This document shows positions 16,434 through 35,990 of a DNA stretch of 64,000 nucleotides, piece after piece. The notes under the pieces are model-generated. The model was not told the origin of the DNA. It saw only the letters and a program-made list of their open reading frames with translations, and did not search any database. The position numbers and the translations under genes are program-made. Position 1 is the stretch's first letter, and the number at the start of each line of letters is the position of its first letter. Source of the DNA: Dehalococcoidia bacterium (GTDB taxonomy: Bacteria; Chloroflexota; Dehalococcoidia; Lucifugimonadales; UBA3495); contig OZ242004.1 of the NCBI GenBank assembly GCA_965204685.1, positions 79,091 to 143,090 on the forward strand, given 5' to 3'.

Positions 16434-19400
16434 CTACGAGGCCGGCGTCACCGTAACCTGGAAGGCGTCGCTGACCTGGTTGCCGTCGGGGTCCTCCGCC
16501 GTGACCGTGATGGTGGCCGTGCCCGTGCCGGTTCCCACCACCGTCAGGGTGGAGCCGTTCACATGCAGGGTGGCCGCCACGGCGTAGTTGGACGATGTGG
16601 CGCTGAAGGTCAGGTCGTCGCCGTCGGGGTCGTGGAACACGCCGGACAGGGAGATCTCCCGATGTCCCGGCAACTCCAGGCTGATGTCGGCCAGGGGCGA
16701 GACCACCGTGGGTGAGCCGTCAGAGGCTTCCCGCCCTGGGTCCTCTTCCTCCGGCTCCGCTTCCACCGATACGTCGAAGCTGTCGCTGACCCGGTTGCCA
16801 TCGCTGTCCTGGGCCGTAACGGTGATGGTGGACGTGCCCTCGGCGACACCCGCCAGCGTAATCTTGGATTGGTCCGCAACCACGGTTACGGTGGCCTTGG
16901 CGTCGTCTGACGAACTGGCCGTGATGGTCAGATTGTCGCCGTCGGCGTCGCGGAAGACGCCGGACAGGGAGACGTCCTGCGACGAACCCGCCTCCAGGCC
17001 GCTCACGTCGGCCAGGGGCTGGGCCACCACCGGCGCAGACTTCACCCTGACGGTGAACTCATCCGATACCGTTCCGCCCTCGTCGTCGTTCGCGGTGACC
17101 GTGATAGTCGCCGTACCACGGCTCTGGGCGCTCACCGTCAGGCCGGAGTAGTCGGCGGACACCGACACCGTGGCCACGGCGTCAGTGGACGAACCGGCGG
17201 TGATGGTCAGCGCGTCGTTGTCGGCGTCGTCGAACACCCCGGACAGGGAGACTTGGTGGGCGCCGCTCTGGTTGACGATGGTTACGTCGTCAATGGCAGA
17301 GGCCACCGTGGGCGCCCGGTTGGGCTGCTCCGGCTCCGGGACCACCGACACCTCGAATTCATCGCTGATCCGGTTGCCGTCGGCGTCCTCCGCGGTTACG
17401 GTGATAGTCCCCGACCCTTCCGAAACTCCTGCCACGGTCAGCGTGCCGTGGAACAGGAAGGCATCCACCACGGCGTCGTCCGACGACGCGGCGCTGAAGG
17501 TCAGGCTGTCGCCGTCGGCGTCGCGGAACACGCTGGACAGGGACACGTCCTTTCCGTCTCCCACCTCCAGGCCGGACACGTCGCCGATGGCCGCGGCCAC
17601 CACCGGGGCGGCCTTCACCTTCACGGTGAAAGCGTCCGATACCGTGCCGCCGTTGCCATCGTCGGCCGTTACGGTGATGGTCGCCGTACCCCGGGCCTGG
17701 GCGGATACCGTCAGGCCGGAGTAATCGGCGGCAACCGACACGGTTGCTTTGGTCTCATCCGAGGACGCGGCGGTGATGGTCAGGTCGTCGTTGTCGGCGT
17801 CGCTGAACACCCCGCTAATGGAGACCGTCCGCGTCCCGCTCTGGTTGACGATGGCGGCGTCGGCGATGGCGGCGGCCACCGTGGGAGATTGGTTGGGCGT
17901 TGCCTGCTGTTGCTGTGGCGCGGCCTCGATCTCCTTCAGGGCGGCGGCCACCTCCACCCAGCGGGACCAGCCCCTATCGGCGAAGTCCTGAGCCTCAGCC
18001 GCCGTCATCGGAGTGAGAGATGCGTCGGACACCGTCTCGCCGAGGGCCAGGAGCGCCCGGTCCCAGCGGTCGGTGTGGGCCTTGTAGCTGCTCCACTGGG
18101 GGTCGTTGCGCCACTGGTACATCTTTGCGATCAGCGCGGCGTACTGCTTCGCCACCGACACGTCGAAGGCGTCGCTGACCCGGTTGCCGTCGGCGTCCTG
18201 GGCCGTGACCGTGATGGTCGCCGCGCCCTCGGCGACCCGCGCCACCGTCAGCTTGGAGCCGTCGGACGCCACGGATACCGTGGCGATGGTTTCATCCGAG
18301 GATGCGGCGGTAATGGTCAGGGCGTCGCCGTCGGCGTCGCGGAACGCGCCGGACAGGGACACCTCCTGCGTTGCTCCCACCTCCAGGCCGCTCACGTCGC
18401 TGATGGCCGCGGCCACCACCGGCGCGGCCTTCACCGTCACCGTGAACGTGTCCTCAACCGTCCCGCCGTTGCCGTCGTCCGCCGTCACCGTGATGGTCGC
18501 CGTGCCCCGGGCCTGGGCCGTAACCGTCAGCGTGGAGTGGTCCGACGCCACCGACATCGTGGCTTTCGTCTCATCGGACGATGTGGCGGTGACAGTCAGG
18601 CTGTCCCCGTCCCCGTCGCTGAAGGTGCCGGACAGGGAGACCCGCTTGGTCCCGCTCTCGTTGACGATGATTGCGTCTCCCAAGGCGGCAGACACCGTGG
18701 GCGCCTGGTTGGGCGTTCCCTGCTGTTGCTGCGGGTCCGGCTCCGCCGCCGCCTCGATCTCCTTCAGCGCGGCCGCCACGTCGACCCAGCGGGTGCCCCA
18801 GGCCGTGTCGGCGTAGCCCTGGGCCTCAGATGCCGTCATCGCCGTCAGCGTCGTGTCGGAAACGGTCTCCCCGAAGGCCAGCAAGGCCCGGTCCCAGCGG
18901 TCGGTGTGCGCCTGGTAGCTCACCCACTGCGGGTCGTTCCGCCACTGGTACATCCGCGCGATCAGTTCCGAGTAATCCCCGGAGGTATCCGGCCCCGGCT
19001 CCTGCGCCTGGGGCGCTTCCTCCGACACCGTCGCCGCAAAGTCAACCAGCGCCGTGCCCCCCTTGCCGTCGTTGGCCGTCACCGTTACCCTCGCCACGCC
19101 CGGGATCAGCCCGGTCAGGGTCAGGGTGGATTGGTCCGACGACACCGCCGCCGTGACCACCTGGATGTACGAGGAACCGTCGTGGCCCGGCGGCGGCTCC
19201 GCCGTGATGGTCAGCGTGTGGGCCGTGACGGTCAGGCTGTCGCCGTCGGCGTCGTCGAACAGCCCGCTCAGCGACACGTCCTTGATCCCGCCCCGGGCCG
19301 CCACGGTGACGTCGTCCAGGGAGCCGGTCGCCGTGGGCGCCTGGTTGGGCGCCGCCGGCGCGGCATCGACCACCTGCGGCAGGTTCAGGGGTACGGCCGT

Positions 19401-22400
19401 GAAGGGCGCGCGCTGGGCTGCCGGGCTGAGACCGCCGTGCTGCAGCACGGGATACTGGCTGGCCGTGCCGAAGTCCCAGGGGTCGTCGCCGCTGCCGTCC
19501 AGGTCCAGGTCCGCGTTCCAGTCGGCGTAGATGCCGGCGTAGCCCGTGGGCCCTTGCAGCCCCGCAGTGGTCTGCCCCACGCCGGCCGGGCTGCTGCTCA
19601 AGCCGGAGGTTTGGGTATCCCAGTAGGCGGCGTCCACCGCGCCGGAGACGTGCGCGCCGGTCAGGCCGCCGGCCGCGCCGCCTTCGGCCGTGGCCGACCC
19701 GGTCGCGTAGCTGGCGGTTACGCTGCCATTGTTGTCGCCCACCAGTCCGCCGGCCCGCTGGCCGGCGCTGGACACCGGCCCGGTGGCGTAGCTGGTCTTG
19801 ATGGAACCGCCGGCTGCGTTGCGGCCCACCAACCCGCCGGTGTTGTCGGCCCAGCCCGAAACCGCGCCCCGGGCGTAGCTGGCCTGGATGAGGCCCTGGT
19901 TGGCGCCCGCCAGGCCCCCCACGCCCTGACCTCCGACCTTTCTCCCGGCCACGTTGGCCCGGGACGAACTGCCCGTGATGAAACTCCCTGACCTGGCCTC
20001 CCCCACCAGGCCGCCCACGTTGCTGATCCCGGACACCGCCCCGGTCACGTGGACGTTGCTGATGATGCCGTGGCTGTACCCGGCCAGGGCGCCGATATAC
20101 CCCTTGCCCGACACGTTGACGTTCTCCAGCCGCAGGTTGCGCACGATGCCGTTGTAGGCAATGATATAGAAGAGGCCCTTATCGTCGTGCTTGCCGTCCC
20201 CCGCATCGGTGGGCAGTCCGTAGATGTTGACCCGGTTCAGCACTTCGTCGGTGAAGGGCGTGTCCAGCGTGTTGATGTACAGGTTCCGTATGGCGTGCCC
20301 GTTGCCCTCGAAGATGCCGCGCCAGTAGTTCCCTCCCTCTATGTCCTGCGCTATGGGTCGCCATCCCTCGCCGTCGTTGCCAAAGTAGTCGTCGCACGCG
20401 CCGGGACCCTGCGCTCCTCCCGGGTGCCCCCCGTACCAACTCCGGCACCTGGCGGAGCCGTCGGGATTATGCGACCCGTTCCAGTAGTGGTCGCCGGGGT
20501 CGGCCCGGCCGTTGCCGTTGGTGTCGAAGTCCAGGTCGGCCATCAGCTCGTAACCCATGCAGCCATCCCCGGGACAGCCCATCCCACGTCTGGCGTTGGG
20601 GTATGCCGATTGGTAAGCGTTCCGGGCACTGTTGGGATAGGGGTTGTGGTCCCAACCATAGGCGCCCCTGCCGTCCTCGTCATAGCGGATGGCATAGAGC
20701 TGGTCCAGGCTGTGCACCTCGATGAGGCCGTCGTCGTCACGATCGTAGTCGATGCCCTGGGCCGGCTGCTGGTTGGAGGGCCTCGTGACCGGCTCGGTGG
20801 ACTCCGGAGGGTCGGGCATCGCCGCCCGCTGGGCCGCCACGCTGGGGCCGGTGTCCCGCAGCACCGGGAAGTCCAGCGACGTGCCGAAGTCCCAGACGTG
20901 GGAGTCGCCGCTGCGGTCCCTGAGATCGTCCCAGAGAGCGTAGATGCCCGTGTAGCCCGTGGGCCGCCGCAGCTCGGCGGTGGTGAGACGCCTGCCGGCT
21001 TGACCGGCGGCTCGGCTGTTCAACCAGTAGCTGGCGGTGATATTGCTTCTGTCGGCGTGTCCCGGCCTTACGTTCGGGAGCGTGCAGCCGATACACCGAT
21101 GGCCATTTTTGGTGCTTACGGACCTGTGATTACCAGCCAGCCCCCCCACGTAACCGTCGCCGGACACCGCTCCCAGGGCGTAGCTGGCCGAGATGGGCGC
21201 ACCGTTATCGCCGACCAATCCCCCGATATATCTTCGGCCGGACACGTCGCCGGTGGCGTAACTGGCGAAGATCTCGCCTGCGTTATCGCCCACCAGGCCG
21301 CCCATGAAATTCGCATTGCCCGATACCCGGCCCGTGGCGTAACTGGCCACGATGCTGGCCCGGATGGGGGCGCTGTCCCAGCCGATGCGGCGAGTGGTGC
21401 TGTAGCCAACCAGGCCGCCGTAATAATCGGTCCCGGATGCGACTGCGGTTACGTCAGCCGTGGAGTAGCTGCGCACGATGCGACCGCCATAGTTCGACCC
21501 GACCAGTCCTCCCACAAAACTGTTCGTGCTCCAGACCTCGCCAGAGGAATGACTGTCTGTGATTGCACCGCGGTTCTGCCCCACCAGCAAGCCGGTCACC
21601 CGCCCGTCGGATACCGACCCGGTCACGCTGGCGTTGCTGATCGCGCCGCGGTTCTTCCCCACCAGAGCGCTCACGTATATTCCTTTGCCGCTACCGCGAA
21701 CTTGCGCGTTCTCCAGCGCCACGTTGCGGATGACGCCGGTCTCTCCAAGCTCCCGAAACAACGCCTGATACCGGTCATCTCTACTGATGTACAGGTAGCT
21801 GATGGCGTGGCCGTTGCCGTCAAAGACAGCGGCGTATTCGCCGATGGGCAGCCAGCCCTGGCCGTCGTTCACGTGCCCGCCGTCAACCGCTCTTGGATAG
21901 TCGCCGGCGTCGGCCCGGCCGTTGCCGTTGCGGTCAAAGTCCAGGTTGGCGGCCAGCTCGTAGCCCTTGCAACCGCTCTGGGGACAGCCCGCCCCGTTGG
22001 CAGTGATGCCGGGGAAGGCCCCTTCGTACTTGTCGTTGGCATCCGCAATGGCGGAACCGCTGGCGGAGCCGTCGCCGTCAAGGTCAAAGCGGATGGCGTC
22101 CAGCTGCGCCAGGCTGCACACCTCGATGAGACCGTCGTCGTCATCGTCGTAGTCGTCGCCGGCCTCCGGCTGGCAGCCGCCCGCGAAGGAGTCCGCCCCC
22201 GTCACCACCGTAACCGCCTGCGACCAGTCGCTTACGCCGCCGTCGTTGCCGGAACGCACGCTCACCGTGTAGGTCGCGCCGCTCTCCAGGCTCTCGAACG
22301 TCGCCGTCCGCGCGTCGGCGCCCAGCCGCTGCTCGGTGGCGTCGCCGTCGGCGTTTTCCAGCCGGGCCACGTAGTAGTCGGGCAGATCGCCGCTGCCCGG

Positions 22401-24863
22401 CCCCCGCCAGGTGACGGTGATGCTGTCCGCCTGCACCGTCAGCCGGAGATCTCCCGACGGGTTGGGCCGAGTGGGGAAGGTCCGGTTCACCGTTACCGCG
22501 TAGGTCTGCGTGGCCACGCCGTCGGGGGCCGTCACCACCACGTTGACCGGGTTCGACGCGTTGTAGTCCAGCGCCACCGGCGACGCCGGGTCTCCGCCGT
22601 TCACGGCAACGGCGGCATTGGGGTGAAACGGCACGGCCGTGAAAACAACGCTCTCCGTGGTGTACGGCACGTCCACCGTGTAGGCGGTGTTGTCCGGGTC
22701 GAAGTCGAGCGTTCCCTCCGAGACGGTCAGGTCGTGCAGGGTGGCGTCGTTGTCGGCGGGCAGACCACGGGTCACCGTCAGCGTGTAGACCTGCTTGTAG
22801 GTGTTTTCCGCGAAACCAGACTTTACAGAGCGGCTCTTCCACTTGTAGATGCCGACCTGCGCCGTCGTGGCCGCTCCCTGTTCCAAGGTGATGGTCTGGG
22901 GCCTTGGATTGTCATTCCTGTGCAGAATGCTGACCAAATCCCGAGGCCAATCCTCGGGCTCTCTGTTATCCCAGTCAATTTCGGCCTGGGCTAGGTCTTC
23001 GGAAACCAGGACGTACGCAGTGTTGCCGCTCCCGTATCGATAGGGGGTGGTGAACCGACCGATAACGACCAACTCGGTCAAGTCCCCCGGCGCCACCAGC
23101 CGGTAGCTGTAGTGGTTGCGACGGAACTCCGGATGGACGGTGATGCCCTCGGGCGTCGCCAGCCCCGTCAGGGCCAGGTCCCGGTTGCCCGGCGCCGCCA
23201 GGTCCACCACCGCAGTGAACCGGACGTTCTCGCTCCGGGGACGGGTCACCGTCACCACGTAGGTCTCCGTGGCCACCCCGTCCACCGCCGTGACCGCCAC
23301 GCTGATGACGTTCGCGCCGTAGTCCAGCGACACCGGCCCGGCCGGGTCGCCGCCGTTCACCGTGACGGCGGCGTGGGGATGGTTGGCGGCCGGCGTGAGG
23401 GTCACCCGGCCCACCGTGGCCGCCACGTCCACCGCGTAGGCGGTGGTGCCGGGAGCGAAGTCCAGCGAACCCGCCGAGATGGCCAGGGCCTTCAGCGTGG
23501 CGTCGTCCGCCGCCTGCGTCGGCTGCGGTGTCGGCGCCGGCGTGGGCGTGGGCGTGGGAGCCGGCTCCAGCCGAGGCGCCGGCTGCGGCCCAAGCGCCGT
23601 GCCCGGGCTGGATGCGTCCCGGATCTCGCCGTGCAGGGTGGCGCTGACGACAGATGGTGACAGCGTGTAGTTGCCCGCCTTGAACGCCCCATGGTCCTGC
23701 AACGAGTAGGTCACGCTCAGGTCATGGGAACCCGCCTCCGCCGACGGGAACTGCCCGCTCACCACCAGCCCCCCGGCCCGCAGGTCCGCCAACTCCCCCG
23801 CCAGCGCCCCGATCACCCGGACCCGGCCCGTGTCGAAGGTGGCGTCCGTGGTCCCGTCGGCCACCCGCGAGTTCACCCGCACCCCGCTGATGGTCGTTAT
23901 CTCCAGGGGCGTGATGGCTCCGCTCACGCTGAAGGTCACGTCGTAGTTGCCCGCGTCCGCTCCGCCGACAGATACTCCGGTGACGGCGATGCCCGTACCG
24001 GCGTCCGCCGCGGCGTAGCTTCCGCCGCTGACCGTCACCACGTCCCCGTTCACGATGTCCCCGGCGGCAAAGCTTCCACTCAAAGCTCCCACGAGCGTCG
24101 CCGTGCCGTCGTAGGCCCTGGCGGGCGCCGTGCCGGTCCAGGTCACCGCCCTGGGCGTGATGGTGTAGGCTGTCGCCGCCGTGAAATCGGCCGGCAGGGC
24201 GTACTTGGTGGCGTAGGCCGGCGCGATGGCCAGGGTGCCCAGGTTGATGGCGTAGCTGCCCGCGTCGTCTCCCGGCGCCCGGCCCAGGCTGCCCGACACC
24301 ACGTTGCTGGCCGCATCGCCGTCCACCAGCCCGCTCACCGTGTGGCTCAGGGCGTCGGTCCCGCCGTACTTCCGCGTGGTGTTCCCCGCCTTGATCGCCA
24401 AAACCCGCGCTCCCCCGATGTAGCAGGTCAGCGTCGCCTGGGCGCTGCTCACCCGGCCTCCCTCGGCGGTTTCGTAGTTCGCCTTGACGCTGAGGCTGAC
24501 CGGCTTCCCCGACGGGTAGCTGCCCCGCCGCAACAGCGTCTGGCCCTTGACGTTGCCCTGCTCCCGCCGGCCGTCCGGCAGTGACAGCTCGTAGTCGTAG
24601 GAAACCGCCTCCTCTCCTGCCCACTCGGGAACGTCCCACATGAACCACACTGCATCCGTTCTGGTAGTGCATTGCAGGTTCGACGGCGGCGGCGGTTCGG
24701 CGCCCTGGGCCTGGACGGGCCCCGATGACAGCAGCGCCAGCGCCGCCACACCGGCAGTCAATGCCACCGTCAGCAGCGCCAGCGCGCACAGCGCCCGGCG
24801 GCCTCGGGACGTGAGGGCAGCGTGAAGCGGGTGAAGGGGACTGGACGGGGGCGTGAATTTCAT
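16434..24863 (-). CDS. giant (2809 aa) modular surface protein, A-type (A1)
   Basis: GGAGGT lies 7 nt upstream of the ATG. Domain order, N to C:
- signal-anchor MKFTPPSSPLHPLHAAL..ALLTVALTAGVAALALL
- FN3-like domain
- MBG/YDG repeats (TPRAVTWTG..AYDGTA..AGNYDV)
- PT linker
- cadherin-like beta-sandwich units (DATLKALAISAGSLDF..TYVVTVTR)
- FN3
- two supermodules of DYD.DDDGLIEV..DLDGDG..GCP..GC.GYEL..DLDFD.NGNGRAD.GD followed by GLUG arrays (GGLVG.N.G.I)
- 8 Ig/cadherin-like repeats (VSLSGVF.DADGD.LT..A.SSD..ATV....LTV....GTATITVTA.D..G..VSD.F.V.V), interrupted twice by a Trp-rich module. Confidence 0.92.
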   Translation of the reverse strand: MKFTPPSSPLHPLHAALTSRGRRALCALALLTVALTAGVAALALLSSGPVQAQGAEPPPPSNLQCTTRTDAVWFMWDVPEWAGEEAVSYDYELSLPDGRREQGNVKGQTLLRRGSYPSGKPVSLSVKANYETAEGGRVSSAQATLTCYIGGARVLAIKAGNTTRKYGGTDALSHTVSGLVDGDAASNVVSGSLGRAPGDDAGSYAINLGTLAIAPAYATKYALPADFTAATAYTITPRAVTWTGTAPARAYDGTATLVGALSGSFAAGDIVNGDVVTVSGGSYAAADAGTGIAVTGVSVGGADAGNYDVTFSVSGAITPLEITTISGVRVNSRVADGTTDATFDTGRVRVIGALAGELADLRAGGLVVSGQFPSAEAGSHDLSVTYSLQDHGAFKAGNYTLSPSVVSATLHGEIRDASSPGTALGPQPAPRLEPAPTPTPTPAPTPQPTQAADDATLKALAISAGSLDFAPGTTAYAVDVAATVGRVTLTPAANHPHAAVTVNGGDPAGPVSLDYGANVISVAVTAVDGVATETYVVTVTRPRSENVRFTAVVDLAAPGNRDLALTGLATPEGITVHPEFRRNHYSYRLVAPGDLTELVVIGRFTTPYRYGSGNTAYVLVSEDLAQAEIDWDNREPEDWPRDLVSILHRNDNPRPQTITLEQGAATTAQVGIYKWKSRSVKSGFAENTYKQVYTLTVTRGLPADNDATLHDLTVSEGTLDFDPDNTAYTVDVPYTTESVVFTAVPFHPNAAVAVNGGDPASPVALDYNASNPVNVVVTAPDGVATQTYAVTVNRTFPTRPNPSGDLRLTVQADSITVTWRGPGSGDLPDYYVARLENADGDATEQRLGADARTATFESLESGATYTVSVRSGNDGGVSDWSQAVTVVTGADSFAGGCQPEAGDDYDDDDDGLIEVCSLAQLDAIRFDLDGDGSASGSAIADANDKYEGAFPGITANGAGCPQSGCKGYELAANLDFDRNGNGRADAGDYPRAVDGGHVNDGQGWLPIGEYAAVFDGNGHAISYLYISRDDRYQALFRELGETGVIRNVALENAQVRGSGKGIYVSALVGKNRGAISNASVTGSVSDGRVTGLLVGQNRGAITDSHSSGEVWSTNSFVGGLVGSNYGGRIVRSYSTADVTAVASGTDYYGGLVGYSTTRRIGWDSAPIRASIVASYATGRVSGNANFMGGLVGDNAGEIFASYATGDVSGRRYIGGLVGDNGAPISASYALGAVSGDGYVGGLAGNHRSVSTKNGHRCIGCTLPNVRPGHADRSNITASYWLNSRAAGQAGRRLTTAELRRPTGYTGIYALWDDLRDRSGDSHVWDFGTSLDFPVLRDTGPSVAAQRAAMPDPPESTEPVTRPSNQQPAQGIDYDRDDDGLIEVHSLDQLYAIRYDEDGRGAYGWDHNPYPNSARNAYQSAYPNARRGMGCPGDGCMGYELMADLDFDTNGNGRADPGDHYWNGSHNPDGSARCRSWYGGHPGGAQGPGACDDYFGNDGEGWRPIAQDIEGGNYWRGIFEGNGHAIRNLYINTLDTPFTDEVLNRVNIYGLPTDAGDGKHDDKGLFYIIAYNGIVRNLRLENVNVSGKGYIGALAGYSHGIISNVHVTGAVSGISNVGGLVGEARSGSFITGSSSRANVAGRKVGGQGVGGLAGANQGLIQASYARGAVSGWADNTGGLVGRNAAGGSIKTSYATGPVSSAGQRAGGLVGDNNGSVTASYATGSATAEGGAAGGLTGAHVSGAVDAAYWDTQTSGLSSSPAGVGQTTAGLQGPTGYAGIYADWNADLDLDGSGDDPWDFGTASQYPVLQHGGLSPAAQRAPFTAVPLNLPQVVDAAPAAPNQAPTATGSLDDVTVAARGGIKDVSLSGLFDDADGDSLTVTAHTLTITAEPPPGHDGSSYIQVVTAAVSSDQSTLTLTGLIPGVARVTVTANDGKGGTALVDFAATVSEEAPQAQEPGPDTSGDYSELIARMYQWRNDPQWVSYQAHTDRWDRALLAFGETVSDTTLTAMTASEAQGYADTAWGTRWVDVAAALKEIEAAAEPDPQQQQGTPNQAPTVSAALGDAIIVNESGTKRVSLSGTFSDGDGDSLTVTATSSDETKATMSVASDHSTLTVTAQARGTATITVTADDGNGGTVEDTFTVTVKAAPVVAAAISDVSGLEVGATQEVSLSGAFRDADGDALTITAASSDETIATVSVASDGSKLTVARVAEGAATITVTAQDADGNRVSDAFDVSVAKQYAALIAKMYQWRNDPQWSSYKAHTDRWDRALLALGETVSDASLTPMTAAEAQDFADRGWSRWVEVAAALKEIEAAPQQQQATPNQSPTVAAAIADAAIVNQSGTRTVSISGVFSDADNDDLTITAASSDETKATVSVAADYSGLTVSAQARGTATITVTADDGNGGTVSDAFTVKVKAAPVVAAAIGDVSGLEVGDGKDVSLSSVFRDADGDSLTFSAASSDDAVVDAFLFHGTLTVAGVSEGSGTITVTAEDADGNRISDEFEVSVVPEPEQPNRAPTVASAIDDVTIVNQSGAHQVSLSGVFDDADNDALTITAGSSTDAVATVSVSADYSGLTVSAQSRGTATITVTANDDEGGTVSDEFTVRVKSAPVVAQPLADVSGLEAGSSQDVSLSGVFRDADGDNLTITASSSDDAKATVTVVADQSKITLAGVAEGTSTITVTAQDSDGNRVSDSFDVSVEAEPEEEDPGREASDGSPTVVSPLADISLELPGHREISLSGVFHDPDGDDLTFSATSSNYAVAATLHVNGSTLTVVGTGTGTATITVTAEDPDGNQVSDAFQVTVTPAS

Positions 24864-24877
24864 TGGGGACCTCCGCA

Positions 24878-24907
24878 GTGCGTTATGAAAGAGAGTGCGT
24901 TATGAAA
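24878..24907 (-). promoter_or_regulatory. two perfect 13-bp direct repeats in the A1 leader
   Basis: GTGCGTTATGAAA at 24878-24890 and 24895-24907 (plus-strand reading), 15-44 nt upstream of the start at 24863. A further 12-bp direct repeat TTCCCGGCGCGG lies at 24928 and 24949. Confidence 0.4.
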
Positions 24908-24973
24908 CTTCCTGATTGGATCGGGTCTTCCCGGCGCGGTGGCTGCTTTTCCCGGCGCGGAAAGCGGCGCCAA

Positions 24974-25056: not shown

Positions 25057-25091
25057 GCAGTCGTTGCTGGTGGTCCGGTCCGGAGAAAGGC

Positions 25092-25193: not shown

Positions 25194-25195
25194 GA

Positions 25196-28200: not shown

Positions 28201-31200
28201 CACTCCGCTGGCGCCTTGGCCAGAGGCGCGGGTGTCCCAGTAACTGGCTGAGGCCCTGCCCTGGCTATGATTGAATCCGACCAGTCCGCCAACGTTTTTG
28301 CCGCCGCCCGACACCGGGCCGGCAGCATAACTAGCCGTAATGACGCCGAGGCCATCGTTATAACCGACCAGTCCGCCTATGTTTTCGCCCCCCCTCATGA
28401 CATCGTTTATGCGAACGCCATCTCCACCCGCGACGCGGCCTGTGGCATAACTGGCGATGATCTTGCCGACGTTGAATCCGACCAGTCCGCCTACGTCCCG
28501 CCCGTCGCCGGACACCTGCCCTGCGGCGTAGCTGGCGATGATCTTGCCTCCGGCTGCGTTGACCCCGACCAACCCGCCGACATCAAACCCCCCGCTGACT
28601 GAACCGGTCATGTACGCGCCGGCAATCACGCCCGAGTTCTGCCCCACCAGCGCGCCGACCTGCCGGTTATTTGTGAAATCGTCTGTGACGGACGCGGAAA
28701 CCAGCCCAACATCGCGCACCACGCCCGGATGAACGATAGTGTGGAACAGACCAACACGCGAGGCCACCACATCATTGATGTAGAGGTTGCTGATGGTGTG
28801 ACCGTTACCGTCGAATGTAGCCCGGAAGCCCGATCCATCGTCGTGCATGGGCGTCCAGCCGTTTCCGCCGTTCCAATAGGCATCGCCGGCGTCGGCTTTG
28901 CCGTTCCCGTTGGTGTCGAAGTCCAGGTCGGTGACCAGCTCGTAGCCAATGCAGCCGTTCTGGGGACAGCCCATGGCGCGGGCGGGATCGGGGAAGGCGG
29001 CCGCGTAGTGTTTCCGGTATTCAGCGCGGTTGGGGCTGCCGTCCCCGTTGACGTCCCAGCGGATGGCGTCCAACTGCGCCAGGTTGGAGATTTCGATCAG
29101 ACCGTCGTCGTCAGTGTCGTAGTCGACGCCCCCGGAGTCGCCGCCGACGGTTGGCGTGTCAGCCCGGCTGCGGTGCTTCAACATTGGATATTCGCTTGAC
29201 GTACCGAAGTTCCAAGGATCGTCAGCATTGCCGTCTCCGTCCAGGTCCACGTTCCAGTTGGCGTAGATGCCGGTGTAGCCGGTGGGTTGCTGCAGCGTCG
29301 CAGTGGGATGGCCGGCGCCCGCGTGGAACTGATGGGATCCGGGCGCTGGAACGGTCCCGAAGGGACTGCGATCTGGGAGATGGCCGGTAACATCGGTGTT
29401 CCAGTACGAGTCTGTCGTGGTGCTATCGTCGTAGCCGAGCAGGCCGCTGACGTAGTAGCGACCGCCGGACACAGTGCCAATGGCGTAACTCGCCGTGACC
29501 GGCGTGCGACTGAACCCAATCAGACCCCCAACGTAGTCGGCCCCGCTGGGAGAGGTGACGTTGCTGGATGAGTGACTGGCAATCACGTAGCCCGGAGAGT
29601 CGGAGGCGCCGACCAATCCACCGGCCCTCGAGTCGTAAGCGCCAACTGTGTTGACCACCCTTCCCGCCGAGCACCCGGTGATGACGGCTCCTACATTGTC
29701 AGCTACCAACCCGCCGACGGTGTTGTTGCCCGTTACGTTGCCGTTGAAGGAACTGGCTATGACGACGCTGGTTGACCTGGTCGATCCCACCAATCCACCG
29801 ACCAGATTCCGCCCGCTTACCGAACCGGTGGCGTAGCTGTCAGTGATTTTGCCGGCGTTGTGGGCCGACAGCGCGCCCACTGTGTAGCCTCCGGTCACGT
29901 TAACGGATTCCAGACTGAGATTGTGAACCTCCGCGCCCAGATCTACGTGACTGAACAACCCCAGAGAACCCCTGCCACTGTTGATGTAAAGATTGCTGAT
30001 GGTGTGGCCGTTGCCGTCGAAGATGCCGCTGAGCCTAGGCGGGTCCCAACCCTCGCCGCCGTTCCAATAGGCATCGCCGGCATCTGCCCTGCCGTTGTCA
30101 TTGGTGTCAAAGTCCAGATCGGCCATCAGTTCATAGCCTTTGCCCGGATCCGAATGCAGGTAGTTGTACAACTCAGCCAACGTGTTGATGTTAGTCAAGT
30201 TCGGGTCGTCAGTTGTGTCCTCGTAACCTACTGGAGCGCAACCCGGCTGGCCCGCCACCACCGTATTGAGCGATGTGGCGTCGTCGTTGTCGATGATGGC
30301 CAGTGTCAGCGGCACAGCCGTCAGGGAAGACGCGCTGGCCGCGGCGTTCAGGATGATGGTCTCGTCGTCATCGTCAACGGCGTCATCCACCACGGTGATA
30401 GTGGACACGCCGGCCGTGGCGCCGGCCGTGATGTTGACGGTGGCCGGCGCCAGGGTGTAGTCATCTCCCGCCGTGGCCGTGCCGCCGGTGGTCAACGCAA
30501 CGCTCACCCCGCCCGGCCCGGCCGGACTGGACAGCCCGGCGGTAACGGTAACTGCGGGGCCGCCCTCCGCCGGCGTTCCGTCGGCAGCCAGCATGAGCGC
30601 GGAGCCGCAGGCGGCCACTGCGGTGAGTTCGCCCTGGAGGGTGTCGGTACTTGCCAACAGGGTGTAGTTGGCCGCCTTGAAGCCGCCGTGATCCCGCAGC
30701 GAGTAGGTCACGCTCAGGGTGTGCCTTCCCGGCGTGGCCGCCGGGAAGGCTCCGCCCACCACCAGGCCGCCGGCCCGAAAGTCCGAAAGCTCCGAGGACA
30801 GCACGCCCACGCCCGTGGCGGCGGACGTGTCAAAGGTCGCCGCCACGCTCCCATCGGCGGGACGGCTGACCACCGTCACCCCGCCGATGGCTGTGATGGG
30901 TCTGGGCGTGATGGTGTAGGACGCCACCGCCGGACGCGACGGCAACGTGTACTTGTCCGCGTAGGCCGCAGCGACCGCCAGCGTCCCCATGTTGATGGCG
31001 TAGCTCCCCGCATCATTCCCCGCCGCCCGGGACAGCGCTCCCGCAACCACGTCTGCCGCCGCGTCGCCGTCCACCAGCCCGCTCACCGTGTAGCTGAGAT
31101 CGTCGGCGCCCCCGTACTCCCGGCTGGGACTGCTGGGCGTGATCGTCAGCGTGCGCGTCTGCGCCGCCGGCTGCCCCGGCGTTCCCTTCACCGCGACCCA

Positions 31201-33168
31201 CCGGCTCTCCAGCCAGTCGGTCCGGTGGCCCGCGCGGGTCCCGCCGCCCCGGGTGCGCCGCAGTTCCACCTCGTACTCCCTGCCGTTGGTCAGCCCCGTG
31301 ATGACGTGGCTGTTCCCGAAAACCTGCTCCCCTTCCGCCGCCGTGGCCTCCGGCGCGTCCTCCCCGTAGCCGATCTTCCAGCCCGGCAGCCCCACCTGGT
31401 TCAGCCAGGCGGTCGTCCCCGCCTCCCGCCACCGCGCCCAGTACAGGTTCGGCGCGCGCGTATCCGTATGGGCCTCCCAGCTCAGGGTCAGTTGCCCGTC
31501 CCCCAGCGTCAGGTCCACCCCCCTGGGGTCCTCCACCGTCCCCTGCTCCACGATCACCCGGTAGGTCTTGGTGTCCTTCCCGTCCAGGGAGGTCACCTCG
31601 ATGGTGATCAGACCGTAGCCCACGAAGGCCCGCCAGGGGCCGCTGGCCTCCCCGCTCACCAACTCCCCCTTGGCGCGCCGGACCTCACCCTGGGCCTCGG
31701 TACCCTTCACCACGATGGACTTGGCCCCGGGCGCCGCCGTCGTCACCACCGCCGTCAGGTAGAGCGTCCCATCCTCTTCCACACCTTCCTCCGGCCCCAG
31801 CATCGGCACCCGCACCCGGTAGTCGTACACCCCGGCCGTCAGCGCCGGACGCAGCTGGTAGGCCGGACCGGCGTAGGGCACCAGGTGATCCAGGTCCGGC
31901 TGCCGGCCGGTGGCACGGTGCACCGCCAGGCCCTGCAGCGTCGCGTCCCCCGACGCCGCCGCCGACGCCCGCACCACCGTCACTGTGTAGCTCCGGCTGG
32001 TGTAGTCGTCCGGCGCCGTGGCCTTCACCCTGATTACGTTCTCCCCCTCCGACAGCGGGATGGCCCCGCTGGCCTGACCGCTGACCACCACCGCCCCATT
32101 CACCGTGATGGTCCCCTTGTCGTACCGGTTGGTGGCGGTCACCCGCACCTCCGCCACGCTGTAGGGCGCCCACCCCCGGTACTCGCCCTGGCTCCCGAAG
32201 AAGACCGGATGCAGCTTCACCTGGGACACCCTCAGGTCCGACAGCTTCGCCAACGGCGCGTGGGTCGCCGTCACCCCGTAGACCCGCCGGGTCTGACCGT
32301 CCTCGGCGGTGACCACCACCTCAACCCGCAGCGGCGTGTTGTCGTGCAGGAAGAACCGCTCGCTCTTGGACCCGCTCCCCACCGCCTTGCCGTCCACCGT
32401 GATGGTGGCCCCGGCGTGGCTGGCCGTGGGCCGCAGACTGGCCCAGCCGTAGCCCAGCGCCAACGTGGCCCCGTACTCCCCGGTCTGGGGCGCAAAGGCC
32501 GGCCGCAGCGCGATGCTGCCGCTCCGCAGCAGCTCCAGCCCGCTGAGGGTGGCGTCCGAGGACACCGCCCGCTGCGGCTGCGGAGCCGGCTGCTGCGGCG
32601 CTGGCGTCGGCGTGGGCGTTGGAGTTGGCGTGGGTGTCGGCGTGGGCGTGGGTGTCGGCGTGGGTGTTGGCGTGTGAGTAGGGGTAGGAGTGGGCGTCTC
32701 CTCCTCCGGCTCTCCTCCCACGTAGCACGCCAGCTCCGCCTCCGTACCGGCCACCTCCCTGCCCTCGGCAGTCTCGTAAATGGTCTTGACCCGGAACCGG
32801 GTCTCCTTCCCCCTCTGGTAACTCCCCGGCCGGTACACCAGCGTGCTCCCCCGCAGCCGCGAGCTCTCCTCCTTCCCGTTCGGCAGCTTCAATGCGTAGT
32901 CGTAGGCGTACACCTCCCCGCCGGACCACTCCGGCGCGTCCCACAAGAAGGCCACCCGCTCCGTCTCCGCGATGCAGCGCAGGTTGGACACCGCCGGCGG
33001 CGCATCCTCCTGGGCCTGGACCAGCCCCGACGACCACAGCGCCAGCCCCGCCAGCCCTACGGCCACCAGCCCCGCCAGCAACAGCAGCGCGCTAAGCCGG
33101 TGCAACGGAGAAAGAGAACGGGAGATTCCGGCCAACTTTGCTTTCAGCTCGGGACTTGCTTTCAACAT
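25252..33168 (-). CDS. giant (2638 aa) modular surface protein, B-type (B1)
   Basis: The ORF track starts at 33273. ATG 33168 (MLKASPELK) is preferred: AAGGAT lies upstream and the start sits 23 nt after the stop of the preceding gene. Domain order, N to C:
- signal-anchor LSPLHRLSALLLLAGLVAVGLAGLALW
- FN3-like domain
- long (PT)n linker
- cadherin-like units
- FN3
- MBG/YDG
- one Calx-beta
- three Ca-loop+GLUG supermodules
- 2 Ig-like repeats
- C-terminal Trp-rich module. Confidence 0.9.
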   Translation of the reverse strand: MLKASPELKAKLAGISRSLSPLHRLSALLLLAGLVAVGLAGLALWSSGLVQAQEDAPPAVSNLRCIAETERVAFLWDAPEWSGGEVYAYDYALKLPNGKEESSRLRGSTLVYRPGSYQRGKETRFRVKTIYETAEGREVAGTEAELACYVGGEPEEETPTPTPTHTPTPTPTPTPTPTPTPTPTPTPTPAPQQPAPQPQRAVSSDATLSGLELLRSGSIALRPAFAPQTGEYGATLALGYGWASLRPTASHAGATITVDGKAVGSGSKSERFFLHDNTPLRVEVVVTAEDGQTRRVYGVTATHAPLAKLSDLRVSQVKLHPVFFGSQGEYRGWAPYSVAEVRVTATNRYDKGTITVNGAVVVSGQASGAIPLSEGENVIRVKATAPDDYTSRSYTVTVVRASAAASGDATLQGLAVHRATGRQPDLDHLVPYAGPAYQLRPALTAGVYDYRVRVPMLGPEEGVEEDGTLYLTAVVTTAAPGAKSIVVKGTEAQGEVRRAKGELVSGEASGPWRAFVGYGLITIEVTSLDGKDTKTYRVIVEQGTVEDPRGVDLTLGDGQLTLSWEAHTDTRAPNLYWARWREAGTTAWLNQVGLPGWKIGYGEDAPEATAAEGEQVFGNSHVITGLTNGREYEVELRRTRGGGTRAGHRTDWLESRWVAVKGTPGQPAAQTRTLTITPSSPSREYGGADDLSYTVSGLVDGDAAADVVAGALSRAAGNDAGSYAINMGTLAVAAAYADKYTLPSRPAVASYTITPRPITAIGGVTVVSRPADGSVAATFDTSAATGVGVLSSELSDFRAGGLVVGGAFPAATPGRHTLSVTYSLRDHGGFKAANYTLLASTDTLQGELTAVAACGSALMLAADGTPAEGGPAVTVTAGLSSPAGPGGVSVALTTGGTATAGDDYTLAPATVNITAGATAGVSTITVVDDAVDDDDETIILNAAASASSLTAVPLTLAIIDNDDATSLNTVVAGQPGCAPVGYEDTTDDPNLTNINTLAELYNYLHSDPGKGYELMADLDFDTNDNGRADAGDAYWNGGEGWDPPRLSGIFDGNGHTISNLYINSGRGSLGLFSHVDLGAEVHNLSLESVNVTGGYTVGALSAHNAGKITDSYATGSVSGRNLVGGLVGSTRSTSVVIASSFNGNVTGNNTVGGLVADNVGAVITGCSAGRVVNTVGAYDSRAGGLVGASDSPGYVIASHSSSNVTSPSGADYVGGLIGFSRTPVTASYAIGTVSGGRYYVSGLLGYDDSTTTDSYWNTDVTGHLPDRSPFGTVPAPGSHQFHAGAGHPTATLQQPTGYTGIYANWNVDLDGDGNADDPWNFGTSSEYPMLKHRSRADTPTVGGDSGGVDYDTDDDGLIEISNLAQLDAIRWDVNGDGSPNRAEYRKHYAAAFPDPARAMGCPQNGCIGYELVTDLDFDTNGNGKADAGDAYWNGGNGWTPMHDDGSGFRATFDGNGHTISNLYINDVVASRVGLFHTIVHPGVVRDVGLVSASVTDDFTNNRQVGALVGQNSGVIAGAYMTGSVSGGFDVGGLVGVNAAGGKIIASYAAGQVSGDGRDVGGLVGFNVGKIIASYATGRVAGGDGVRINDVMRGGENIGGLVGYNDGLGVITASYAAGPVSGGGKNVGGLVGFNHSQGRASASYWDTRASGQGASGVGAGKTTSELQSPTGYAGIYADWNVDLDGDGNADDPWDFGTSCQYPVLKYGGLNPDDQRAPCTPAAAATPASTGKELLMPPCEPDPDRRPAPKAGVIAFIMCEDHLTVESVSTASDITFYPGFTPDRHHYVVHVADSVTELQVTGGFKAGYPLTTYRYGAGFAWAFVRGQAVVYPGPMPLDGAMQNNVDRYTPRSLSINLSPGVTTIEIGGSQWFKGMGSARSETGSEWLLDSAKMAKKTYTLQLVWRSPSTALEAPVEPLAPPRTVDYDTDDDGLIEISGLAQLDAMRWDVDGDGYSDHGGPLHEGFLNPLERMGCPQTGCIGYELTTDLDFDTNGNGRADAGDAYWNSGYGWLPIGIDTHDYNAVFEGNGHIIRNLYIDSTIEKQSVATDYRINGSYSMDQASVGMFEGVASGGVIRNLGLEAVNVSRCPAQDGCARVNAGGLAGTNHGEIRNSYVTGAVSNRGSVLGGLVGTNYGAIQGSYATASVTGIEETQPYRGRSPHSNVGGLVGKNDGVIRESYATGVVTGEGRNFGGLVGFNTDRGTITASFATGSVEGDGYYIGGLVGRNAGTVTAAYAAGSVTGSGPVALRNIGALGSLIGYNSNVVEATYAVGRPDGVLVGSVVGGASRIIAGYSYRTKTEWSGPEFGATVSLDQLRQPTGYTGIYADWNVDLDGDSSADDPWDFGTDSQYPVLKINSITPATQRALIEDISERPPTVYNAIGEATIVNESGTKQVSLSSVFTDADGDSLTITAASSDEAVATVSVAPNYSTLTVSAQARGTASITVTADDGNGGTGADTFMVSVKAAPVVASAIDDRSGLEVGSTQDVSLSGVFSDADGDTLTITAASSNDAIATVSVASDFSRLTLAGVSVGTATITVTAQDSDGNRVSDTFDAPVARKYAALIAQMYQWRNDPQWVSYKAHTDRWDRALLAFGESVSDGSLTPMTAAEAQELADRGSAWVRWVPVAAALKEIEAAQSG

Positions 33169-33191
33169 GGCGTTGTATCCTTGCGGGTAGG

Positions 33192-35990
33192 TTACGGGTG
33201 GGTGGATTCCGGCAGAGTGATGCTGGCGTGCACTCGCTCGCCTTTGCCGGCCTCGTTTTTGGCCCGCACCCAAACTCTGTAGCTCGTGCCCGCTTCCAGC
33301 TTCTTGAAGGTTGCGGTCGTCTTATGGGCCTTGTTGTTCTTGGTCGTGCCCTTGCCGCCGCTTTCGGGCTTGACGTGGGCGATGTAGTGGTTGGGGGCGC
33401 CGCCGCGATCCGGGGCCTCCCAGGTGACGGTTATTGCGTCCGCCGTGGCCGTCAGTTCCAGATTCACCACCGGGCCGGGCCGGGTTGCCGCATCTTGCGT
33501 GACCACCGACGCGTCGAATTCATCGCTGATCCGGTTGCCGTCGGCGTCCTGGGCCGTAACGGTGATGGTCGCCGTGCCTTCGGCCACGCCGGAAAGGGTC
33601 AGCTTGGAGCCGTCGGAGTCCACGGTCGCGGTGGCTACGGCGTCGCTGGAGGAAGCGGCGGTGATGGTCAGGGCGTCACCGTCAGCGTCGCTGAAAACGC
33701 CGGACAGAGACACGTCCTGCGTGGCATCCACCTCCAGGCCGCTCACGTCGGCCAGGGGCCGGGCCACCACCGGCGTAGCCTTCACCGTGACGTTGAAAGC
33801 ATCCGAAACTGAGCCGCCTCTGCCGTCGGCGGCGGTGACCGTGATGGTTGTCGTTCCCCGGGTCTGGGCGCTCACCGTCAGCGTGAGGTAGCCGGGGGCG
33901 ATGGACACCGTGGCCCTGGCTTCATCCGAGGATACGGCGGTGATAGTCAGGTTATCGTAGTCGGCGTCGCTGAACACGCCGGACAGGGAAACCGTCTGCG
34001 TACCGCTCTCGTGAAGGATGGTGGCGTCTGAGATGGCGCTGGACACCGTGGGCGCCCGGTTGGGCGCGGCCTGCTGCTCCTGCGGTGGCGTGCAGGTAGC
34101 GCGCTGGTCGTCCGGGTCCAGGCTGCCGTATTTCAGGACGGGGTACTGGCAGGCGTTGCCGAAGTCCCAGGGGTCATCGCTGCTACCGTCGTCGTTCAGG
34201 TCCACGTTCCAGTTGGCGTAGATGCCGTCATATCCGGTGGGCTTCTGGAGCTGGGCGGTGGTTTTGCCGGTTCCGCCATTGGGCTTGGATATGCCCGAGG
34301 TATCGACGTCCCAGTAGCTGTCGGTAGTAGCGCCTTGGGGCACATGATAATTTCCGATCAGTCCGCCAATTTTGCCGTCGCGGCCGCCGGAGGGCTGGCC
34401 GGTGGAGTAACTGGCAATTATGGTTCCTCTGGCATATCCGATCAGACCGCCGGCTGCATCACTGTGGAGGGGGGTTTCGGGAAAGGCGGGGTCGGCGATC
34501 TCGCCGGCGGCGGATGGGTTGCCGGTAGCGTAACTGGCAACGACTGTGCCGGACGGGTAATTTTCCTCGTGGGGCATATATCCAATCAGACCGCCGACGT
34601 TGTAACTGCCGGACACGTTGCCGGTGGCGTAACTGGCGGCAGTGAAGTCTCCCTTTGAGCTCAGTCCTACCAGGCCTCCAATCCCGCGGCCGGCGGAGGA
34701 CACGTCGCCTGTGGCGTAGCTGGAGATGATGGAGCCGCCTTCGTTGGTACCGACCAGCCCGCCCACGTCATCGGTTTCTCCGGTCACGCCGGCCGTGGAG
34801 TGGCTGTCAACTATCAGACTGGATTCCAGGGCGGCTCCAACCAGCCCGCCAACGCTGTTGATGCCGGACACCGTGCCGGTTGCGTAGCTGTCGCGGATGG
34901 TTCCGTAATTTCTCCCGACCAGGCCGCCGACGTGAGCGCTCTTGCTGGATACGTTCACGGCTTCCAGCCCCACGTTGCGAATTATGCTGCCGTCTCTGGC
35001 AAACTCAAACAAACCGACCGCCCAATAATATTCAAGGCGGATATGCAGGTTACTGATGGTGTAGTCGTTTCCCTCAAAGATGACCTCGGTTCCCTGGGTT
35101 CCAAACTCCAAGGGCAGCCAGCCTTGACCGTCGTTCCAGTAGGCGTCATCTGCGTTGACCTCCCCGTCCTCGTTGGTGTCGAAGTCCAGGTCGGCGGTCA
35201 GTTCATAGCCCTTGCATCCCGTCTGGGGGCAGCCCATGCCGGCCACGGCGTTGGAAAAGGCGGCGGCGTAGCGGTTGGCGTCCTTGGCAGCGCCGTCGCC
35301 GTCCGGGTCCCACCGGATGGCGTGCAACTGGGGCAGACAGGACACTTCAATGAGGCCGTCGTCGTCGGAATCATAGTCGCCGCTGCCGGGCGTATCAGTG
35401 CAGAGAGTATCAACAATCGTGGGTTCCGGGGGTTCCGTGGGCTCGTCGTTGTCCTTGATGGTAAGGGTAAGGGGTGACGCGGTGAGGGAGAGGGCGGCAA
35501 CCGTGGCGTTGAGGACGATGGTCTCGTCATCATCGTCAGTCCCGTCGTCGATGATGGCGATGTAGGTGAAGCCGGCTGTCGCGCCGGCTGGGATCTTGAT
35601 GGGATCGGACGACAGGTTGTAGTCGGCGTTGATGGTGGCGGTGCCGCCGGCGGTCAGGGGAACGGTGACGCCGTCCGAGCCGGCCGGGCTGTCCAGGACG
35701 GCGACCACGGTAATCCAGGGTTTCATCCCCTCGGCCGGCGCTCTGCTGGCGCCCAGCATGAGCGTGGAGGGCGCGGCCGGGGTCACAGCAAGCTGGCCTT
35801 GCGGCGTGACAGGGGTGGGATCGTAGCCCGCTCCCCGGGCGGTTCCGGACGGGTACAGCAGCAGCCCTGCCAGCAGCACGACGGCCAGCAGCAGCGCCGC
35901 GCCGTAGCAGCGCCGGGGCGGTGGGGGCCAACGAAGTCGATGAAGCGAGAGAGCAGGACGGAGAATCAGGGGCGGCTTTGCTTTCAACAT
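33192..35990 (-). CDS. 932-aa family member C (Calx-beta + one Ca-loop/GLUG supermodule + 2 Ig-like repeats + C-terminal FN3)
   Basis: ATG 35990 (MLKAKPPLIL) has AAGGAA upstream; its leader and first codons parallel those of B1. Signal-anchor is ALSLHRLRW..AALLLAVVLLAGLLL. Motifs seen: GGTATINADYNL..DDDDETIVLNA; DYDSDDDGLIEVSCLPQLHAIRWDPDGDG; GLUG repeats; FN3 ITVTWEAPD..YRVWVRAKN. Confidence 0.9.
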   Translation of the reverse strand: MLKAKPPLILRPALSLHRLRWPPPPRRCYGAALLLAVVLLAGLLLYPSGTARGAGYDPTPVTPQGQLAVTPAAPSTLMLGASRAPAEGMKPWITVVAVLDSPAGSDGVTVPLTAGGTATINADYNLSSDPIKIPAGATAGFTYIAIIDDGTDDDDETIVLNATVAALSLTASPLTLTIKDNDEPTEPPEPTIVDTLCTDTPGSGDYDSDDDGLIEVSCLPQLHAIRWDPDGDGAAKDANRYAAAFSNAVAGMGCPQTGCKGYELTADLDFDTNEDGEVNADDAYWNDGQGWLPLEFGTQGTEVIFEGNDYTISNLHIRLEYYWAVGLFEFARDGSIIRNVGLEAVNVSSKSAHVGGLVGRNYGTIRDSYATGTVSGINSVGGLVGAALESSLIVDSHSTAGVTGETDDVGGLVGTNEGGSIISSYATGDVSSAGRGIGGLVGLSSKGDFTAASYATGNVSGSYNVGGLIGYMPHEENYPSGTVVASYATGNPSAAGEIADPAFPETPLHSDAAGGLIGYARGTIIASYSTGQPSGGRDGKIGGLIGNYHVPQGATTDSYWDVDTSGISKPNGGTGKTTAQLQKPTGYDGIYANWNVDLNDDGSSDDPWDFGNACQYPVLKYGSLDPDDQRATCTPPQEQQAAPNRAPTVSSAISDATILHESGTQTVSLSGVFSDADYDNLTITAVSSDEARATVSIAPGYLTLTVSAQTRGTTTITVTAADGRGGSVSDAFNVTVKATPVVARPLADVSGLEVDATQDVSLSGVFSDADGDALTITAASSSDAVATATVDSDGSKLTLSGVAEGTATITVTAQDADGNRISDEFDASVVTQDAATRPGPVVNLELTATADAITVTWEAPDRGGAPNHYIAHVKPESGGKGTTKNNKAHKTTATFKKLEAGTSYRVWVRAKNEAGKGERVHASITLPESTHP

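Follow-up and report, generated by a model that had tools for sequence, protein, structure and literature searches.

Giant modular proteins, putatively exported and adhesin-like, and a duplicated B-A gene unit in a Dehalococcoidia genome

Giant surface proteins built of cadherin, fn3, Calx-beta and Ig-like modules are thought to help uncultured symbionts attach to and recognize their hosts, and to our knowledge almost nothing is known of how such proteins are exported, retained on the cell, regulated or diversified. Here we describe a locus encoding proteins of this kind in a 64,000-nucleotide stretch (the window) of contig OZ242004.1 (positions 79,091 to 143,090; assembly GCA_965204685.1) of a Dehalococcoidia bacterium, in which six very long minus-strand open reading frames (ORFs), designated X, A1, B1, C, A2 and B2, include a B-A gene pair that is present twice. 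The locus is an ordinary but well-resolved case of a fast-evolving surface-protein family; it sharpens current ideas, without overturning them, and supplies testable parts. Its value lies in a dated duplication (dS of about 0.23) overlaid by what appear to be very recent conversion tracts, in cassette boundaries that fall at domain junctions, and above all in two by-products: a reusable putative promoter block, and a small, conserved, confidently modelled and expressible domain, HTD, that has no existing annotation.

Several described systems invite comparison. The supermodules (SM) of the A, B and C proteins resemble, in their GLUG repeats, sequence profile and fold, the GLUG helix of the IgA1 proteases (S. 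pneumoniae ZmpA, 6XJA/6XJB; G. haemolysans, 7UVK/7UVL) and of BACOVA_03286 (3N6Z). However, the giant proteins lack the M26 domain, HExxH motif and LPXTG of the M26 IgA1 proteases, and, unlike the IgA1-protease helix, the SM has an Asp-rich N-terminal cap that includes a CPxxGC pair, is closed at its C-terminus by a second, conserved cap, and is repeated one to three times per SM-bearing protein between Ig-like modules. In having thousands of residues, tandem Ig/cadherin-like repeats, Asp-rich loops and an acidic composition the giant proteins are like the adhesins LapA, SiiE and MpIBP, and although an NCBIfam scan gave nothing above cut-off, weak tand_rpt_95 and Ca_tandemer matches below it recall the Ca2+-stabilized repeat adhesins and tandem-95 proteins. 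They differ from LapA, SiiE and MpIBP in carrying Sec-type N-terminal signals and not a C-terminal RTX/type I secretion signal, and the host is probably not a Gram-negative proteobacterium. The variable surface families of Mycoplasma, Borrelia and Neisseria also show co-directional paralogues, near-identity beside divergent cassettes, and shared upstream sequences; unlike those families, this locus has no silent cassettes, invertase, site-specific recombinase or sign of programmed switching, the giant copies have their own start codons, and each transcription unit has its own upstream block.

A further likeness is to the eukaryotic-like-domain proteins of sponge symbionts, with which PF12733, PF17892, PF00041 and PF03160 are shared; these cadherin, fn3 and Calx-beta classes are reported to be enriched in sponge-symbiotic Actinobacteriota (PMC11706023). 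That literature consists of domain counts, in which the B-A unit, the mosaic structure, the supermodule and HTD are not described, and nothing relevant was found in the literature on Poriferisodalis or on GLUG together with sponge. More distant homologues of the giant proteins are the GLUG/cadherin-like proteins of Candidatus Poriferisodalis (Acidimicrobiia), and this, together with the domain enrichment, makes a host-associated lifestyle plausible; the bacterium is possibly an animal or sponge associate, although the hints are limited to the related Dehalococcoidia MAGs and, for a sponge, to a few named homologues, which weighs against it.

Six giant genes and a duplicated B-A unit

The six ORFs sum to 39,716 nucleotides, or 62% of the window, in agreement with a first-pass annotation, made from the letters of the window alone, that had put them at about 39.7 kb of 64 kb. 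We regard them as real genes because their G+C content at third codon positions is 0.78-0.89 (the G+C of the window is about 65%) and because their homologues number in the hundreds.

7611-15683, minus strand: gene X, 2690 amino acids; signal peptide, FN3 and about 18 Calx-beta/LapA-like repeats
16434-24863, minus strand: gene A1, 2809 amino acids
25252-33168, minus strand: gene B1, 2638 amino acids counted from the conserved MLKA start
33192-35990, minus strand: gene C, 932 amino acids; signal peptide, CALX, SM, IG, IG, FN3
51188-59557, minus strand: gene A2, 2789 amino acids; collinear with A1
59874 to >64000, minus strand: gene B2, C-terminal 1374 amino acids visible; no stop before the window edge

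Pfam matches above gathering thresholds are to Big_2, Big_9/Cadherin_5, Cadherin-like, fn3, GLUG, MBG_2, YDG and Calx-beta, so that the domains named in the first-pass annotation, which had proposed a profile search as its own check, are recovered. Module layouts were derived with hidden Markov models (HMMs) built on the window's own modules. A1 and A2 read signal peptide, N-domain, MBG, YDG, CADL, x, CADL, FN3, SM, SM, and then IG, HTD, IG, IG, HTD and five IG. B1 reads signal peptide, N-domain, a Pro/Thr linker, three CADL, an fn3-like module, MBG and CALX, followed by an SM with a short cap, a second SM, a 210-residue CADL-like module, a third SM, two IG and a C-terminal HTD; the visible part of B2 reads fn3-like, MBG, CALX, SM, SM, IG and HTD. 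The earlier counts of three GLUG supermodules in B1 against two in B2, and of two terminal Ig-like repeats against one, are thus confirmed by the local HMMs, and the layout of C (CALX-SM-IG-IG-FN3) bears out its description as a minimal member; the proposal that these giant, modular proteins form one exported family is likewise supported. Precomputed annotation flags PF27332.1 on A2 and many relatives and not on A1, and its presence is independent of HTD.

Comparison of the window with itself by blastn shows that the B-A unit is truly duplicated. Positions 16433-25058 and 51187-59753 align as a single collinear block (8,688 columns, 87.2% nucleotide identity) that starts precisely at the two A-gene stop codons and extends across the A-B intergenic region, and the B genes align at their ends, with 25148-25776 matching 59770-60398 (91.6%) and 30267-31355 matching 62912-64000 (94.1%). 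The flanks downstream of the A genes are unrelated, being the region upstream of X in one case and a META gene in the other, such that collinearity spans genes and intergenic DNA between differing flanks, as in a segmental duplication. The gene order and intergenic block common to both copies, and the shared ends but different module content of B1 and B2, had been recognized previously; so had the collinearity of A1 and A2, although their identity, judged by eye to be about 90 percent, is somewhat lower (83.7% by blastp for the proteins, and the 87.2% given above for the DNA).

Overall, A1 and A2 have diverged by 0.23 substitutions per synonymous site (dS) and 0.098 per nonsynonymous site (dN), with a dN/dS of 0.43. 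Their identity is patchy, varying between 55 and 97 per 100 residues and between 60 and 98% per 200 nucleotides, and is lowest at residues ~600-700 and in the first supermodule (~1000-1290).

20850-22175, minus strand: A1 supermodule 1, Asp-rich cap and GLUG beta-helix; the most diverged A1/A2 part
19434-20771, minus strand: A1 supermodule 2
24866-24920 and 59560-59612, minus strand: TTTCATAACGCAC repeat region, kept in both A copies

In the last of these, TTTCATAACGCAC occurs twice in direct orientation, with a spacing of about 17 nucleotides, immediately 5' of the ribosome-binding site of each A gene.

The statement that the B-A pair is present twice therefore holds, but it understates the family, since the 4,275,039-bp source contig carries A-type paralogues elsewhere, and the genome has at least four. 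P0003 (2335 residues) is an A-type protein without the CADL-FN3 block and P0010 (2229 residues) one without SM, and their N-termini are 78-89% identical to that of A1; the C-terminus of the fragment P0133 resembles those of B1 and B2 and is a third one of the B-like type. Within the species-representative genome set the nearest loci are OZ241880, OZ241962 and OZ242258, all labelled 'MAG: Dehalococcoidia bacterium'; each contains co-directional arrays in which five to nine genes carry the same modules in other orders. Beyond the giant genes, the window encodes an RCC1-repeat beta-propeller protein (594 residues, 40876-42660, plus strand) with strong internal DNA repeats. RCC1 propellers are evidently another module of the family pool, because an RCC1-like segment lies inside a giant gene of OZ242258 (L003 18243-19040) and RCC1 Pfam matches occur in P0032, P0039 and P0041.

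On balance we think it fairly probable that the six ORFs encode giant, exported, adhesin-like proteins of a family that is lineage-specific and has expanded, for which a scheme of export, folding, evolution and expression can be proposed. The proteins would exit via Sec, with the signal peptide cut after a conserved A-Q-A, and outside the cell each would form a long string of beta-sandwich modules (Big_2/Big_9, cadherin-like, Calx-beta, fn3, MBG/YDG) and ~440-residue supermodules, whose beta-helices would act as binding surfaces; Ca2+ binding and an adhesive function are suggested by analogy. The family would have diversified by segmental duplication (the B-A unit) and internal tandem duplication (IG-IG-HTD units), as well as by gene conversion among its paralogous members and by the swapping of entire cassettes, for which old module subtypes would form the pool. 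The presumed transcription units C-B1, A1, X and A2 would each be expressed from their own copy of the upstream block, derived from a promoter shared with a divergent kinase/OmpR-type regulator.

Export, retention and the supermodules

Each giant protein has exactly one hydrophobic segment, which is N-terminal, and a strongly acidic composition. The features of a Sec/signal peptidase I substrate are visible, with an Arg/Lys n-region, a hydrophobic core (h-region), albeit a long one, and a conserved AQA/VQA; the residues that follow the core are VQA and then Q in A1 and B1, AQA and Q in A2, AAA and Q in X, and TAR/GTA in C, and [AVSTG]QAQ lies directly after the h-region in 32 of the 47 top homologues having such a segment. 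A small-x-Ala motif after a hydrophobic core is the signature of signal peptidase I substrates, and because it is conserved here, Sec export followed by cleavage is favoured; most likely, judging from these motifs, the giant proteins leave via Sec with a cleavable N-terminal signal peptide. This makes doubtful the N-terminal signal-anchors of the first-pass annotation. If the segment were left uncleaved it would tether the proteins as a membrane-bound surface coat, and it must be counted against cleavage that the h-regions, at 22-28 residues, are of a length that would allow a membrane anchor and that the proteins offer no other anchor; yet the persistence of AQA/VQA and then Q behind the core across otherwise divergent N-termini makes a signal-anchor unlikely.

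How cleaved proteins would be held at the cell is less apparent. No LPXTG, PEP-CTERM-like tail, RTX/GGxGxD run, lipobox or C-terminal hydrophobic segment is present in the giant proteins, and none of 30 other ORFs scanned in the window matches a sortase, secretion or transporter (ABC/MFP/TpsB) family, as had been noted previously for sortase, LPXTG, PEP-CTERM and dedicated secretion genes. A sortase-anchored surface protein was rejected for the lack of an LPXTG-like motif and of a C-terminal hydrophobic segment. Retention may be non-covalent, through the HTD domain, a 75-residue module that occurs twice in A1, twice in A2 and at the extreme C-termini of B1 and B2.

17919-18143 (A1 copy 2), 18747-18974, 25264-25494, 52667-52891, 53483-53707 and 59886-60116, minus strand: HTD copies

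The HTD consensus is YAALIAxMYEWRNDPQWVSxKAHTDRWDRALLAFGETVADTTLTPMTAAEAQxFADRGWTRWVEVAAALREIEAA, and its mean column identity of 79% over 26 copies from several genomes is far above that of neighbouring modules. It is predicted to form a four-helix domain with a high mean predicted local distance difference test score (pLDDT 97.8), and it has no match in the Pfam copy searched at E<=1, none among PDB sequences, and none in the PDB by Foldseek (best E 5, TM 0.3). When 1.84 billion cluster representatives are searched exhaustively with the HTD HMM, 736 proteins reach E<=1e-3 and 472 of these also reach E<=1e-10, whereas a word-indexed profile search returns only 44 short proteins, mostly C-terminal fragments of giants, such that the real spread of the domain is visible only by exhaustive search. 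HTD lies at the very C-terminus in 38 of 144 further listed proteins, and its neighbours are Ig-like, Calx-beta or more HTD. The strong conservation of its sequence suggests a specific partner. With low confidence, HTD could serve for docking or self-association and thereby bear on retention; if so, it would answer the question of retention that the first-pass annotation had posed.

A second module lacking annotation is the ~95-residue N-domain (NLxCxxxTDxVxFxWDxPEWxGGE...) that follows the signal peptide (A1 residues 55-150, window 24414-24701) and has no Pfam match. It is also present in B1, P0006 and P0038, and because it recurs at the extreme C-terminus of both P0006 and P0038 we count it as another module of the family.

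The supermodule is about 440 residues long and begins, in a 23-copy alignment, with an invariant DYDxDxDGLIE, followed by a CPxxGC pair and DLDFDTNGNGxADxGD, continues as GGLVG (GLUG) turns, and closes with a C-terminal YWD...PTGYxGIY...D(L/V)DGD...DPWDFG..YPVL. PF07581 (GLUG) scores are 42.8 bits in A1, 81.0 in B1, 55.7 in C, 76.7 in A2 and 67.5 in B2, against a cut-off of 20.5. Every SM-bearing protein has between four and nine DxDxDG-type motifs; DxDxDG loops are a known Ca2+-binding class and, by this analogy, the Asp-rich cap presumably binds Ca2+. An AlphaFold2 model is a beta-helix (pLDDT 87.5; predicted template-modelling score 0.90), and we picture the Asp-rich, disulfide-containing cap as sitting on a GLUG right-handed beta-helix. 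With this model Foldseek finds 3n6z (E 1e-6) and 7uvk, 7uvl and 6xja (E <1e-3, probability 1.00) in the PDB, and a search of PDB sequences with the SM profile finds 6xjb (E 1.9e-16), in its N-terminal helix only.

These matches raise the question of catalysis. An M26 IgA1-specific metalloprotease was ruled out by the absence of the catalytic domain and of HExxH: the six proteins have no Pfam match to Peptidase_M26_C and no HExxH motif, and their ZmpA/ZmpB NCBIfam scores are only 20-27 bits against a cut-off of 3000. Invariant polar residues are confined to the cap (DYDxDxDGLIE, CPxxGC), and no conserved charged residue is found on the helix across the 23 aligned modules. Because the M26 domain, HExxH and conserved charges on the helix are all lacking, we read the modelled SM as a binding surface similar to the non-catalytic N-terminal domain of the IgA1 proteases, and not as an enzyme. 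That the supermodules are instead lyases, hydrolases, epimerases or protease-associated domains, and the giants matrix-degrading exoenzymes, finds some encouragement in weak Foldseek matches (E 7e-3 to 1) to the AlgE4 epimerase, polygalacturonases, a fucoidan lyase and phage tailspikes; the significant matches, however, are all to the non-catalytic IgA1-protease domain and 3n6z, and with neither HExxH nor conserved acidic or basic helix residues we consider enzymatic function quite improbable.

Secretion by a type I or two-partner (TPS) system, as for RTX/LapA adhesins or FhaB, is extremely improbable: X has LapA-domain matches, and distant MBG/YDG/GLUG homologues carry a TPS domain and are named filamentous haemagglutinins, but the giants have Sec-type N-termini without a TPS domain (no PF05860 by Pfam in the six proteins), RTX nonapeptide runs or a C-terminal secretion signal, and the window has no ABC/MFP/TpsB genes. 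A type I RTX giant adhesin of the LapA/SiiE type was accordingly rejected for want of GGxGxD runs in the proteins and of a transporter match in the 30 neighbouring ORFs, and an FhaB-like TpsA for want of PF05860. The giants are thus not IgA1 proteases, type I/RTX substrates, TpsA proteins or sortase substrates, since the defining features of each were looked for and not found.

Mosaic structure of the B genes

B1 and B2 are mosaics of near-identical and strongly diverged segments. Residues 606-785 of B1 and visible residues 1-180 of B2 are 100% identical, with a single mismatch in 540 nucleotides (99.8%); over the following 180 residues identity is about 90%. Precisely at the CALX/SM junction (B1 residue 966) it collapses to 20-30%, and it does not exceed 90% again before the last Ig module, HTD and the intergenic DNA.

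30814-31353, minus strand: near-identical tract in B1, against B2 63459-63998; runs off the window

The SM modules of B1 are 44-60% identical to those of B2, no higher than any pair within the family, and have their closest relatives in other genomes: the third SM of B1 in P0031 (78%), the first of B2 in P0017 (73%), the second of B1 in P0044 (64%) and the second of B2 in P0040 (62%). The SM subtypes are therefore old and common to several genomes. The cassette found only in B1, the 210-residue module with the third type of SM, is contiguous in P0031, P0014, P0022 and P0040. This pattern calls for gene conversion and/or cassette replacement: either cassettes would have been replaced, or the ends of the genes homogenised by conversion, and the 540-nucleotide tract is a candidate for recent gene conversion. 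A duplication followed by module gain or loss, as had been suggested, is right as to the duplication, but gain or loss is too simple for 539 matches in 540 nucleotides and an abrupt drop at a domain junction.

Sequence this repetitive (internal repeats are 70-80% identical) could in principle be misassembled, with repeats collapsed or joined chimerically so as to produce either the two units or the near-identical tract. It counts against a conversion that the tract, with its one mismatch, sits at the window edge and could conceivably be an artefact of consensus building or polishing across paralogues. But the units are about 13% different over 8.7 kb with many indels, and their distal flanks are unrelated, which makes a duplicated-assembly artefact very unlikely; moreover, the contig is 4.28 Mb long and related genomes have the same kind of arrays, and we give almost no weight to an artefact of either kind.

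Upstream blocks, a divergent kinase gene and neighbouring features

A block of about 130 nucleotides with an AT-rich core (...CCCATACAAAAGAnGnTCTAAAAATACGGACTGAAATACCGTTTCTGGTGTAAGTTGGCGCCGCTTTCCGC...) and a direct repeat, AAATACGG-N4-AAATACCG, occurs before X, A1, C and A2 (four copies, compared with none expected).

16081-16214, minus strand: upstream block before X, with the core TCTAAAAATACGGACTAAAATACGG at 16131-16155
24936-25069, minus strand: upstream block before A1
36069-36201, minus strand: upstream block between C and the divergent kinase gene; probable source copy
59631-59765, minus strand: upstream block before A2; adjacent kinase remnant partly deleted
36255-38690, plus strand: hybrid sensor kinase/response regulator, 811 amino acids; GAF-PAS-HisKA-HATPase-REC-OmpR-type DNA-binding domain
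16259-16360, plus strand: 33-codon remnant of the kinase 5' end, MGQPCREIGVLRECL..., copied along with the block (X copy)
25092-25193, plus strand: 33-codon remnant of the kinase 5' end, MDQPCREIGVLRECL..., in the B1-A1 intergenic region
25197-25222, also 166-191, 38727-38752 and 59819-59844, no strand assigned: GC-rich palindromic hairpin GGGCGTCC-N10-GGACGCCC

Because remnants of the kinase 5' end accompany the A1 and X copies, we suggest that the block has spread from a kinase-adjacent promoter. B1 has no copy; its start lies 23 nucleotides past the stop codon of C and its ribosome-binding site and start context are the same as those of C, from which C and B1 are probably one operon. The hairpin is found 3' of B1, B2 and two other genes, and also after giant genes of OZ242258; its form and placement make it a likely terminator. 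Both kinase remnants are intact 33-codon ORFs of equal length that end just before a hairpin (MGQPCREIGVLRECLPRLSRASRRINSIAANLD and MDQPCREIGVLRECLCRLSQDSRRINSLVGKLN, respectively), and are either decaying fragments or small expressed peptides.

In OZ242258 a kinase homologue (58% identity) is divergent from the head of the giant-gene array, and that genome has its own block of about 290 nucleotides repeated before four giant genes, both of which speak in favour of control by the kinase. The block described here was not found in the related loci by pattern or by nhmmer profile, and is genome-specific. Two results weigh against control of the giant genes by the kinase through the block: a sigma-70 consensus scan of conserved block regions detected no promoter, and eight metagenomic loci with kinase orthologues of 51-58% identity have no family modules nearby, which makes the kinase link weak. 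We offer such control solely as a hypothesis. An intrinsic-terminator consensus scan of the conserved block regions was also negative, and an Rfam scan of the whole window at gathering thresholds gave no matches.

A more far-reaching proposal, which we hold to be distinctly doubtful, is that the locus supports recombination-driven surface variation, in which beta-helix cassettes would be swapped between homogenised flanks under a common promoter block, and HTD would dock the proteins to the envelope or to each other.

An 82-codon ORF with a CxxC...CxxxxC pattern (15755-16003, minus strand) lies in the leader between the block and the start of X, which at ~410 nucleotides is unusually long, and X is adjoined on its other side by a gene for a 632-residue SWIM zinc-finger protein (5183-7081, plus strand). 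Two paralogous signal-peptide and fn3 proteins of 151-154 residues are encoded at 334-798 and 38914-39369, both on the minus strand; their DNA (7-789 and 38568-39369) is 78.7% identical, and each gene is followed by the GGGCGTCC...GGACGCCC hairpin, so that the window contains another, smaller unit that is duplicated. Between the two B-A units, the 44-50 kb stretch has a lower G+C content (0.56-0.61) and contains an IS4/IS5-type transposase in two overlapping frames (DUF4096 and DDE_Tnp_1; 47388-48193, minus strand), an IrrE/Peptidase_M78-like ORF (45089-46582) and a truncated MFS transporter (43488-44360); it is probably a mobile or degraded insertion. Finally, a 149-nucleotide repeat with 92.6% identity is present at 2008-2156 and 2978-3126.

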